Sequence record: DRR723986_4259
DNA length: 51,431 nt
Direction: 5' to 3' (one strand)
Under the pieces are notes generated by a model. That model was not told where the DNA came from, did no database searches, and worked only from the letters and a program-made list of their open reading frames with translations. Shown one piece after another: positions 48,155-51,431 of this stretch. Every line of letters begins with the position of its first letter. Position 1 is the stretch's first letter. The position numbers were made by a program, and so were the translations under genes.

Positions 48155-48330
48155 AGCTACCAAGCCCCTCTGCTGGCAAATGGTTTCACGCGCAGATAAT
48201 ACCCTTTACACTAGCGTCATAACACGCTGCCCGTCCCGGTTTTGGACGCAGCAAGCACCGATATAAAAATCTGGCCCGCATTATCGCTTATCGCGGCGCC
48301 CTCTGCGAATGTTTGTCTGAGAGAGAATCA

Positions 48331-49809
48331 ATGCAAATCAGCCTAAAGCCCTGCAAAGACCCGAAAACCATCGCCACTGACTGCCTTGTCGTCTTCAGCA
48401 ATGGCCAGTTAAGCGGCGCCCTCACCGCCATTAACGAGGCGAGCGATGGCGCAATCGACGCACTGCTGAAACGCGGCGATTTTAAAGGCAAGGTCGCAGA
48501 AACACTTTATATCCCTTATTTACCCGGTATTCGCGCCAAACGGCTGCTGCTGGTCGGCACTGGTGACAGCGAGACCGTCAGCGATGCCGACGCCGACAAA
48601 CTCCTGCAAAGTGGTATTGCTGTATTGAACAAGCAGCAGAGCAAAGACTGCTGTCTTCTGTTTGGCGATCTGCGCGTCGACGGGCGCAAAGCCAGTTGGC
48701 TGCTGCAGCGCAGTGCCCAGCTGCTGGAAGTGTCCCGCTACCGTTACAGCGAAACCTTGAGCAAGGCAAAACCGGGCAGCGCATTGCGGCGCGCCGTGTT
48801 GCAAGGCAGCAACAGCGACAGCAACCGTAAGCTCGTCGAATATGGTCAACAAACGGCAGAAGGCATTAACGTCACTCGTCGCCTCGGTGATTTGCCCGGC
48901 AATATATGCACGCCGGATTTTCTCGCGAAAGAATCACGCAAACTCGCTCGACAGTTCGAGAAAGTAAAAGTTAGCGTGCTCGATGAGAAAAAAATGCAGC
49001 AGCTCGGTATGGGCGCCCTGCTCTCGGTTAGCGCCGGCAGCGACCAGCCCGCGCGCTTGATTGCCATTGAATATCAGGGCGCGGCAAAGAGTCAGCGCCC
49101 GCACGTACTGGTGGGTAAAGGGGTCACTTTTGACACGGGCGGCATTAGCCTTAAGCCCGGCGCCAAGATGGATGAAATGAAATACGACATGTGCGGCGCC
49201 GCCAGTGTGGTGGGCACACTTCGCGCCGTTGCCGGAGCAGAGTTAAAGGTCAACGTGGTCGGCATTGTCGCGGCGGCCGAAAATATGCCCAGCGGCCGAG
49301 CAACCAAGCCCGGTGATATCGTCACCAGTATGTCGGGGCAAACCATCGAAATACTCAATACCGACGCCGAAGGCCGATTGGTGCTCTGTGACGCTCTCAC
49401 CTACGCAGGCAAGTATAAACCCGCGTCAGTCATCGATATCGCAACGCTGACAGGCGCCTGCGTTGTTGCCCTGGGTAAACACGCTATCGGCCTATACAGT
49501 AATCAAGACGACTTCGCTGCAGAGCTGCAAAACTGTGGTAACGAGGCACGCGACCGCGCCTGGCCTATGCCCTTGTGGGATGACTACCAGCCGCAACTGG
49601 ACAGTAACTTTGCCGACATGGCAAATATCGGCGGCCCCGAGGCCGGCAGCGTTACCGCCGCGTGCTTCCTGTCGCGCTTTTGTAAAGACTATCGCTGGGC
49701 ACATTTGGATATCGCGGGCGCCGCTTGGCTGTCCGGTGCCAACAAAGGCGCTACTGGTCGCCCGGTAGGTCTGCTCTTCAACTACCTGCAAAGCAAGGCA
49801 AAGGACTAG
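48331..49809 (+). CDS. pepA: Leucyl aminopeptidase PepA
   Basis: GKGVTFDTGG, MKYDM, NTDAEGRL, ATLTGA, WAHLDIAG. Confidence 0.97.
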   Translation: MQISLKPCKDPKTIATDCLVVFSNGQLSGALTAINEASDGAIDALLKRGDFKGKVAETLYIPYLPGIRAKRLLLVGTGDSETVSDADADKLLQSGIAVLNKQQSKDCCLLFGDLRVDGRKASWLLQRSAQLLEVSRYRYSETLSKAKPGSALRRAVLQGSNSDSNRKLVEYGQQTAEGINVTRRLGDLPGNICTPDFLAKESRKLARQFEKVKVSVLDEKKMQQLGMGALLSVSAGSDQPARLIAIEYQGAAKSQRPHVLVGKGVTFDTGGISLKPGAKMDEMKYDMCGAASVVGTLRAVAGAELKVNVVGIVAAAENMPSGRATKPGDIVTSMSGQTIEILNTDAEGRLVLCDALTYAGKYKPASVIDIATLTGACVVALGKHAIGLYSNQDDFAAELQNCGNEARDRAWPMPLWDDYQPQLDSNFADMANIGGPEAGSVTAACFLSRFCKDYRWAHLDIAGAAWLSGANKGATGRPVGLLFNYLQSKAKD

Positions 49810-50241
49810 GTGACTCGCGTCGATTTTTACATTATCGGCAGTACCTCGGCCGATGCGGCAATGGATTTCAGCTGCCGGCTGGCCGAGAAAGCGTGGCGCG
49901 GTGGTCATCAAATATTGATGCACTGCGCCGATGCCCAGCAAGCCGCCGAACTCGACGACCGTCTTTGGCAGTTTAAGCCAGAGAGTTTTCTCCCCCATGA
50001 GCTGGGTGCAGAGGGTGGCACTGACATAGCGATCTGCCACGCAGGCGACCACACCGCCATGGGCGATCACTGCGACTTGCTGATCAATCTCGCCCATGAT
50101 GTGCCCGAGCCATTCAGCCGCTTTACACGGCTGGCAGAAATTGTCGATCAACGCGAGCAGTCACTGGCGGCATCGCGGCAGCGCTACAGCTTTTACAAGC
50201 GTCGCGGCTACCCGCTGCACAATCACAACGTCGGCCAATAA
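49810..50241 (+). CDS. holC: DNA polymerase III chi subunit
   Basis: VDFY, LDDRLW...SFLPH, LINL, R.RY..YK..GY; pepA-holC-valS synteny. Confidence 0.95.
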   Translation: MTRVDFYIIGSTSADAAMDFSCRLAEKAWRGGHQILMHCADAQQAAELDDRLWQFKPESFLPHELGAEGGTDIAICHAGDHTAMGDHCDLLINLAHDVPEPFSRFTRLAEIVDQREQSLAASRQRYSFYKRRGYPLHNHNVGQ

Positions 50242-50252
50242 GGGGGACCGCA

Positions 50253-50588
50253 ATGAGCCACACCAACGACGAACAACTTCCCCTGTTAGACGAACTGCAA
50301 TCATTAAAAACCGTTCTCAGTGACACCGGCGACGACATCCCGGTGCTGAACGACATTATCCACACTCCCGATACCGAGCCCGCCGAGGCTTCAGATAGCG
50401 CGGAACAAACAGCCAGTAACAGCAGTGACTGGCTGGCCGGCGGTGACGACGACCACAGCAGGGAGATTTTTTTACAAGAATTGATCGACGATATGCTGCC
50501 CGACATAGAAGCGGAACTTCGCAGGCGTCTGCTTAAGCTCGACGGCGACGTACTCGAACGCTGGTATCAACAAAGCCGTCAGCGCTAA
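50253..50588 (+). CDS. Small acidic hypothetical protein, PopZ-like architecture
   Basis: AAGGGGG RBS; about a quarter D/E; N-terminal helix, low-complexity linker, C-terminal helix LQELIDDMLPDIE. Confidence 0.8.
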   Translation: MSHTNDEQLPLLDELQSLKTVLSDTGDDIPVLNDIIHTPDTEPAEASDSAEQTASNSSDWLAGGDDDHSREIFLQELIDDMLPDIEAELRRRLLKLDGDVLERWYQQSRQR

Positions 50589-50654: not shown

Positions 50655-50684
50655 TTGGCCCAGAGGACCAAAACTCAGTATACT
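50655..50684 (+). promoter_or_regulatory. Possible sigma70 promoter for valS
   Basis: TTGGCC-N18-TATACT. Confidence 0.4.
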
Positions 50685-50750: not shown

Positions 50751-51431
50751 ATGGATAAAACATTTCAGCCTGCGGACATTGAAAGCAAGTGGTACCAGAC
50801 CTGGGAGGAAAAAGGGTATTTCTCCCCCGCCGGAGATGGCCCTGCCTACAGCATCATGATCCCACCTCCCAATGTCACCGGCAGCCTTCACATGGGGCAT
50901 GCGTTTCAAGACTCGATCATGGATGCGCTCACCCGCTATCAGCGCATGAAAGGCGCCAAGGCGCTGTGGCAAGTGGGAACCGATCACGCAGGTATTGCCA
51001 CCCAGATGGTCGTCGAGCGCAAACTCGCTGCGGAAAGTGGCCAGACCCGTCACGACCTGGGCCGCGACGCCTTCCTGGATAAGGTATGGGAATGGAAAGA
51101 GGAGTCTGGCGGCACAATTACTCGCCAGCTGCGTCGCCTCGGCGCCTCTGTCGACTGGCAAAACGAACGGTTTACCATGGATGAGGGCTTCTACAAGGCC
51201 GTTCAAGAGGTCTTCGTTCGCCTCTACGACGACAAATTAATCTACCGCGGTAAGCGCCTGGTCAACTGGGATCCCAAGCTCCACACCGCCATTTCCGACT
51301 TGGAAGTTGAAAACAAAGACGAGAATGGTCATCTCTGGCACTTCCGCTACCCACTAGCTGACGGCCAAACAACCGCCGATGGCAGCCGCTACCTTGTCGT
51401 TGCCACCACCCGTCCGGAAACCATGCTCGGC
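50751..51431 (+). CDS. valS: Valine--tRNA ligase (5' part; runs off the window)
   Basis: Not in the ORF track because it has no stop. Translation from ATG 50751 gives [24 protein letters not shown]...[46 protein letters not shown]. Confidence 0.97.

Follow-up and report, generated by a model that had tools for sequence, protein, structure and literature searches.

The acidic gene between holC and valS

The window, by which we mean the whole 51,431-nucleotide stretch of sequence record DRR723986_4259 that was analyzed, carries near its 3' end a block of genes on one strand, in which pepA is followed by holC, by a short ORF that we call X, and by the 5' part of valS. The ATG of X lies 11 nt past the holC stop codon, and X is separated from valS by 162 nt. 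The features of the block and the parts of the X protein are the following.

48313..49809, plus strand: pepA (leucyl aminopeptidase), which opens the conserved block (PF00883, E 9e-128; PF02789)
49810..50241, plus strand: holC (DNA polymerase III chi; PF04364, E 1.8e-40)
50242..50247, plus strand: Shine-Dalgarno-like GGGGGA, 6-11 nt 5' of the X ATG, read from the sequence
50253..50588, plus strand: gene X, encoding the 111-aa acidic protein (ATG start; stop codon included)
50277..50321, plus strand: N-terminal amphipathic helix, residues 9-23, LPLLDELQSLKTVLS (predicted by AF2)
50322..50447, plus strand: acidic disordered linker, residues 24-65, which includes the IPVL motif (AF2 pLDDT 47-58, no secondary structure)
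50337..50360, plus strand: IPVLNDII motif at residues 29-36, with P30 and L32 unchanged across 64 sequences
50448..50537, plus strand: long C-terminal helix, residues 66-95 (AF2 pLDDT above 90)
50499-50501, plus strand: Pro83, inside the long C-terminal helix and invariant in the alignment columns, as is Glu86
50544..50582, plus strand: last helix, residues 98-110, DVLERWYQQSRQ (predicted by AF2)
50655..50684, plus strand: weak promoter-like site in the 162-nt gap between X and valS, at chance level
50751..51431, plus strand: 5' part of valS, with its ATG at 50751, continuing past the end of the window (PF00133, E 8.7e-72)

The original prediction described X as a 111-aa, very acidic protein with several characteristic motifs, and the ORF bears this out. 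Asp and Glu make up 24% of the residues and Lys and Arg 8%, which gives a net charge of -18 and a pI of 4.1; the translation holds LLDELQSLKTVLSD (residues 11-24), DDIPVLNDII (27-36) and LQELIDDMLPDIEAELRRRL (74-93). A regulatory scan found 3 promoter-like sites, with 1.6 +/- 1.3 expected, and neither a terminator-like site nor anything else above chance between holC, X and valS; the locus has no Rfam match.

X is a real, conserved protein-coding gene, because it has relatives and because substitutions relative to one of these fall mainly at third codon positions. In a comparison of X with this 95%-identical relative, 13 of the 19 nucleotide differences are at third codon positions, and 11 codon changes are synonymous and 5 non-synonymous. 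It should be noted that a 127-aa, Ser/Cys/Ala-rich ORF lies opposite X on the minus strand (50123-50506); most probably it merely mirrors the acidic coding strand.

A family with two conserved modules

No Pfam or NCBIfam model matches the X protein at E≤10. X founds a family that has no name so far and whose members are small, very acidic and for the most part disordered. A word-indexed search yielded 18 close relatives, of which those with a source name belong to Spongiibacter, and a locus search with the close alignment returned 6 loci, mostly from the same genus. Exhaustive phmmer with X gave 37 cluster representatives at E≤1e-3. Alignment A2 (40 rows) combines X, 34 of these representatives and 5 proteins from the word-indexed search; two fragments (P0025 and P0041) and a protein matched only at its N terminus (P0051) were left out. 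A search with the A2 profile listed 124 proteins at E≤0.1, including members from Zhongshania, Halopseudomonas and several Pseudomonas species. Alignment A4 (64 rows) consists of A2 minus six rows with long inserts, plus 30 of these 124 matches.

In the order to which X belongs, the A4 profile detects members in 78 of the 201 genomes sampled and 45 of the 111 genera, Pseudomonas included; the genome count is a lower bound, because there are divergent members that the family profile misses. The narrower A2 profile has matches in 7 of 400 genomes of the class. Among genomes without an A4 match, one carries a divergent acidic ORF in this position, in two others holC abuts valS, and in one the site is occupied by a different gene. 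In genome G176, an acidic ORF of 132 aa lies between holC and valS (L119:2017-2415, plus strand); it is missed by the family profile and begins with the helix QLLGELDEINNEL.

Conservation within the family is concentrated at the two ends of the protein. Three segments are conserved, namely the helix LLxELExI+xLL at the N terminus, the motif IP[VLIT]L and, toward the C terminus, QE[VI][IV]DxxxPxIEAELRxRL; P30, L32, P83 and E86 are invariant in all 64 rows of A4, and in the N-terminal helix L11, L12, L15, L18 and L22 are invariant among close relatives. The linker varies freely in sequence and in length, from 18 to 95 aa within A4; two open frames of 358 and 454 aa have linkers of several hundred aa. 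In X itself, the linker (residues 24-65) contains 26% acidic and no basic residues. Several long-linker members (L062, L065, L072, L076, L078, P0152 and P0153) share within the linker an additional short motif, ENPFLP with a basic-hydrophobic stretch after it, and in some the D-I-P-T-L motif is repeated; ENPFLP is absent from the window protein. In three genomes (L055, L040 and L071) the match to the family profile was reported with one in-frame TGA.

The predicted structure supports the proposed build, an N-terminal amphipathic helix, an acidic disordered linker and a helical C terminus. AF2 with alignment A4 places helices at residues 9-23, 66-95 and 98-110 and disorder at 24-65, with pLDDT above 90 in the C-terminal part. 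Prediction of a two-copy complex of residues 60-111, for which the alignment went unused and controls were not folded, gave a score of 0.02 and a mark of 0.32, values that speak neither for self-association nor against it. A PDB sequence search with the family profile found nothing below E 1.2, and neither a membrane segment nor a known domain is predicted in X.

The place of the gene is conserved in the family: of 30 loci of the order, all have pepA upstream, holC adjoins the X gene in 26, and valS follows directly on the same strand in 25. Both holC and valS flank the gene in 21 of the 30 loci, as they do in all 7 class-level A2 matches. The description of X as a conserved hypothetical gene between holC and valS holds. 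In 5 of the 30 loci, the X gene remains with pepA-holC and valS is not adjacent. Another arrangement is seen in one genus, represented by genomes G928, G513, G473 and G432 (loci L056, L058, L061 and L063). In all four, which are 95-99% complete, the order is pepA, X gene, valS, and PF04364 has no match anywhere in the genome at E≤0.01.

Comparison with PopZ

The central claim of the original prediction was that X may be a miniaturized, overlooked homolog of PopZ. PopZ is the best-studied bacterial condensate-forming hub. According to PMC5686542, it consists of helix H1, an acidic Pro-rich linker and helices H2-H4. PMC9512792 describes this architecture as conserved over the alphaproteobacteria, with homologs gathered by BLAST of the C-terminal region, and PMC12682051 identifies H1 (M10-I17, reaching E23) as the client-binding motif and reports that PopZ lacking the C-terminal residues 134-177 no longer self-assembles. 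Passages of both of the latter sources treat PopZ as a protein of Alphaproteobacteria. The literature searched, mostly at the level of abstracts, contained neither a gammaproteobacterial PopZ relative nor a study of the gene between holC and valS.

For comparison we assembled a PopZ reference set with PF10691 (cut-off 27 bits). In a sample of 401 genomes of the phylum, 132 have PF10691 matches at E≤0.01 and 100 are above the cut-off, none of the latter in Gammaproteobacteria; one flagged unpublished genome (G384) is included in these counts. The set comprises 28 proteins from the 30 best PF10691 loci (L015 and L023 were left out), and its consensus reads EPSMEEILASIRRIIADD ... DVLEL ... MLKxWLDxNLPxxVE, so that the PopZ motifs on which the original prediction relied are indeed present in the 28 retrieved sequences. 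AF2 of a PopZ with the PopZ alignment gives a helix at 12-28, disorder at 29-143 and helices at 144-166 and 171-209; in the PDB, PopZ is present only as 6XRY. Many weak PF10691 matches, with E from 1e-7 to 1e-2 and covering model positions of about 30-74 only, occur outside the Gammaproteobacteria in the families f44, f48, f39, f50, f64 and f72. These matches lie within open frames of roughly 500-990 aa and may represent a PopZ C-terminal-like module of larger proteins.

Genomic position is the first line of evidence. In 21 of the 30 best alphaproteobacterial loci, valS lies directly downstream of popZ on the same strand, an arrangement also stated in PMC5686542. The adjacency of popZ and valS that the original prediction named for alphaproteobacteria thus holds, and the position upstream of valS is genuine for X and for popZ alike. 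By contrast, hundreds of kilobases separate holC from popZ in all 5 alphaproteobacterial genomes examined; therefore, valS is the sole common neighbor of X and popZ.

Standard homology searches between the two families are negative. PF10691 has no match to X at E≤10, none in the nearest genome (G001), and none among 40 members of the X family and then 20 further ones; PF10667 (DUF2486; cut-off 22 bits) likewise matches 0 of 40 and 0 of 20. The positive control for PF10691, in Caulobacter, was detected. Reciprocally, the A4 profile at E≤10 found popZ in none of 5 alphaproteobacterial genomes, and the PopZ profile found nothing in 5 of 5 gammaproteobacterial genomes carrying X. When hmmsearch was restricted to the two families, the best E-value from X to PopZ was 0.06, no better than shuffled or reversed controls; from PopZ to X, 12 of 64 sequences reached 7 bits, a small excess over the 5 reversed and 0-2 shuffled sequences that did so. 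Whole-length hhalign gave probabilities of 0.7%, 0.2% and 1.5% in three runs, so the profile-profile match expected of a PopZ homolog fails the usual standards. The three best segments of the whole-length comparison are collinear (P 0.033, 0.1 and 0.23). In a language-model atlas, whose scores serve as leads only, the neighbors of X and PopZ do not cross (best scores 0.85 for X and 0.88 for PopZ).

The second line of evidence comes from comparison of individual modules, and here the three motif matches that had been claimed fare differently. For the N-terminal match, the N helix of X against PopZ helix 1 scores 16.8 in hhalign (E 9.3e-5, probability 59%) over only 11 aligned columns, a score reached by none of 100 column shuffles, with cross-module controls at 4.6-10.6. 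The PopZ invariant residues I15, L16, S18 and I19 are matched in X by similar, though not in all cases identical, residues. In an ungapped profile slide over 188 offsets, the N block of X fits best on PopZ helix 1 (14.1, against 1.0 for the runner-up), and the aligned blocks are equally distant from the N terminus in both families. Judged by these profile comparisons, the N-terminal helix of X appears to resemble the client-binding helix of PopZ above chance.

The C-terminal match is marginal. Module against module, hhalign scores 14.8, which 3 of 100 shuffles reach. In the ungapped slide, the highest-scoring of 185 offsets sets the Pro-centered C core of X on PopZ MLKEWLDDNLPGLVERLVRA (18.4, against 5.0 for the runner-up), and in this Pro-anchored register only D79 and P83 of X line up with D188 and P192 of PopZ. 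The second and third whole-length hhalign segments (P 0.1 and 0.23) have a different C-terminal register, one that pairs conserved tryptophans and not the prolines; because the two registers differ, the C-terminal likeness may be generic to amphipathic helices. The middle match, DDIPVL against DVLEL, falls away: its hhalign score of 6.7 is reached by 20 of 100 shuffles, which is chance level.

When real proteins of the window serve as background, a single module is matched by chance with a probability of about 0.06-0.09 per protein. A two-module score was then computed that required the N block within the first 45 residues and the C block within the last 60. With the X model, the PopZ median is 30.1, which none of 1295 background ORFs from an alphaproteobacterial genome reaches (2 reach the PopZ minimum); with the PopZ model, the X median is 34.9, which none of 1256 background ORFs from a gammaproteobacterial genome reaches (21 reach the X minimum). 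The windows of this first score were chosen by eye. The score was rerun with windows set by information content and with ORF starts assigned as in the background; only 20 of the 30 X loci passed the motif filter here. The target medians are then attained by 0-6 of the 1295 and 1-11 of the 1256 background ORFs. On the two-module score, each family ranks within the top 0.1-1% of a background of about 1,250 ORFs.

Linker-trimmed hhalign of the N and C blocks alone scores 21.3 (E 4.9e-4, probability 32%) and is matched by none of 100 shuffles, a figure that is an upper bound because the junctions were set so that the Pro-anchored register needs no gap. With all three modules, the linker-trimmed score is 18.1; the reversed profile does as well (18.3), and so do 2 of 80 shuffles. 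It should be noted that the alignments had already been seen when the windows, position limits and junctions of the favorable tests were chosen, and that members of the X and PopZ families are not independent observations.

Interpretation and relation to known systems

Taken as a whole, the view of X as a miniaturized PopZ homolog is, in our opinion, partly supported. The X family is PopZ-like in build, composition and position next to valS, and its N helix appears to resemble PopZ helix 1 above chance, but it fails the standard homology tests that define PopZ membership. Three claims of different reach can be attached to this view. The most modest concerns mechanism: by analogy with PopZ, X may work on the same principle, with self-associating C-terminal helices, a binding N helix and an acidic spacer, and we regard such a PopZ-type hub or adaptor as the most likely working principle, if somewhat short of an even chance. 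Common ancestry of the two families is plausible but less likely than not; X would then be a very remote, shortened PopZ relative that lacks helix 2 and has retained the ancestral place upstream of valS. The most far-reaching claim is that the X family is the gammaproteobacterial PopZ ortholog, a shortened, self-assembling, condensate-forming hub older than the split of Alpha- and Gammaproteobacteria that kept its ancestral place next to valS. We consider this unlikely. If it were correct, X would survive in Pseudomonas and many marine relatives, where it would use the N-terminal helix and the IPxL motif to organize a cell pole or some other place in the cell.

X is a modular, probably cytoplasmic protein that would be expressed from the pepA-holC-X-valS block, with the N helix and invariant IPxL motif as one module, an acidic, variable spacer rich in Pro, Ser and Ala as another, and a pair of C-terminal helices around the invariant proline as the third. 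On the PopZ principle, copies of X would associate through the hydrophobic C-terminal helices, with the acidic spacer preventing the assembly from closing up, and the N-terminal helix with the IPxL motif may fold upon binding client proteins.

The principal alternative is that X has no relation to PopZ and is an acidic disordered protein specific to its lineage, for example a regulator, an adaptor or a chaperone-like partner. Its likeness to PopZ would then reflect convergence of amphipathic helices together with composition, and its place next to valS would be coincidental. This could well be so, although we judge the chances to be against it. It accords with the negative outcome of every standard homology test, with atlas neighbors that do not cross, with the disagreement between the ungapped slide and hhalign on the C-terminal register, and with a middle motif at chance level and an invariant IPxL that has no PopZ counterpart. 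Moreover, many windows were scanned initially, so that some striking coincidences are to be expected. The same alternative, however, needs the shared neighbor and strand and the shared module order to coincide, and random insertion directly upstream of a given gene has a chance of roughly one in a few thousand, a figure that is estimated and not computed. It must also accommodate an N-helix match reached by no shuffle and reciprocal two-module scores in the top 0.1-1%.

A second alternative ties X to replication. The C-terminal tip of SSB, D-D-D-I-P-F, is bound by chi, and the D-D-I-P-V-L of X recalls it; X might accordingly bind chi (HolC), or compete with the SSB tail, by means of its acidic stretch and this motif. 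The neighborhood is consistent with such a role, since holC adjoins X upstream in most loci (26/30), with a gap in the window of 11 nt that carries the Shine-Dalgarno-like run and no terminator-like site, and since X stays with pepA-holC in the 5 loci where valS is not adjacent. The role is weakened because the holC-less genus keeps X between pepA and valS in all four genomes without PF04364. Furthermore, the motif of X is internal and not C-terminal, and the acidic residues preceding IP are not conserved in the family. NCBI and UniRef give several Pseudomonas members (among them P0084, P0087, P0121, P0128 and P0148) the name "DNA polymerase III subunit chi", which would seem to speak for the replication link, but the name rests on no chi domain: PF04364 does not match X, none of the 120 relatives listed, the chi-named ones included, has an entry in the Pfam column, and the chi-named members have no NCBIfam match. 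We regard a partnership with chi as improbable. The label itself is probably a propagated annotation error; it is unsupported by any domain and should be corrected.

That the X ORF is no functional protein gene and owes its conservation to a valS regulatory region, as its shortness, low-complexity middle and position just upstream of valS might suggest, is very improbable, given terminal modules conserved as protein across 45 genera while the linker varies freely, substitutions mainly at third codon positions, the lack of an Rfam match at the locus and confident AF2 helices.

Returning to the PopZ-like reading, if the X family is a true PopZ relative, the PopZ principle would be older and wider than thought, and would extend to easily manipulated Pseudomonas species, where the question can be tested. 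If it is not, X still represents a family without a name that occurs widely, in 45 of the 111 genera sampled from the order, and that has two sharply conserved short modules.

Among known systems, HolC/chi (PF04364) resembles the X family in neighborhood and database label only, the true holC being a separate upstream gene. The polar hubs known in Gammaproteobacteria, HubP and FimV, are acidic, repeat-rich or disordered scaffolds that gather proteins at the pole. They are large membrane-anchored proteins with a LysM domain, whereas X is a small protein in which neither a membrane segment nor a domain of known type is predicted.

DUF2486 was considered as a name for the X family and rejected; it is rare in the samples and matched by no member, with 0 of 151 genomes of the order above the cut-off. 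In the class, the single match above the cut-off among 301 genomes is an ORF just downstream of holC in genome G778 (L047:2-271, minus strand), which scores 23.3 bits with DUF2486 (cut-off 22) and carries DIPTLTDVV, comparable to the IPVLNDII of X. With the X-family profile it scores 13.2 bits, of which compositional bias accounts for 7.2. This ORF differs from X in having no N-terminal helix; an Ala-Glu repeat is followed by the end of the contig. In one neighbor cluster from the atlas, whose score of 0.84 serves as a lead only, 13% of the members carry DUF2486, and a sister relationship between DUF2486 and the X family is possible.

PopZ itself differs from the X family in several respects. 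X family members have no PF10691 match and are found in Gammaproteobacteria downstream of pepA-holC; their median length is 132 aa, against 205 aa for PopZ, so that they are about half as long. The linker has a median of 40 aa with 14% Pro and 19% acidic residues in the X family, and of 103 aa with 19% Pro and 27% acidic residues in PopZ. X has two C-terminal helices where PopZ has three, the equivalent of helix 2 being missing; the WLDxNLP signature of PopZ is reduced to D...P, and PopZ lacks the invariant IPxL of the X family. The likenesses are nonetheless of several kinds. The parts follow the same order, an N-terminal amphipathic helix, an acidic disordered linker of variable length and C-terminal helices, and the invariant proline of each family lies within a long, confident AF2 helix. 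The proteins are similarly acidic (acidic fraction of the whole protein 0.20 in the X family and 0.22 in PopZ; median pI 4.5 and 4.4), and the N helix of X bears a weak similarity to the client-binding helix 1. Finally, both genes lie directly upstream of valS on the same strand, X in 25 of 30 loci and popZ in 21 of 30.
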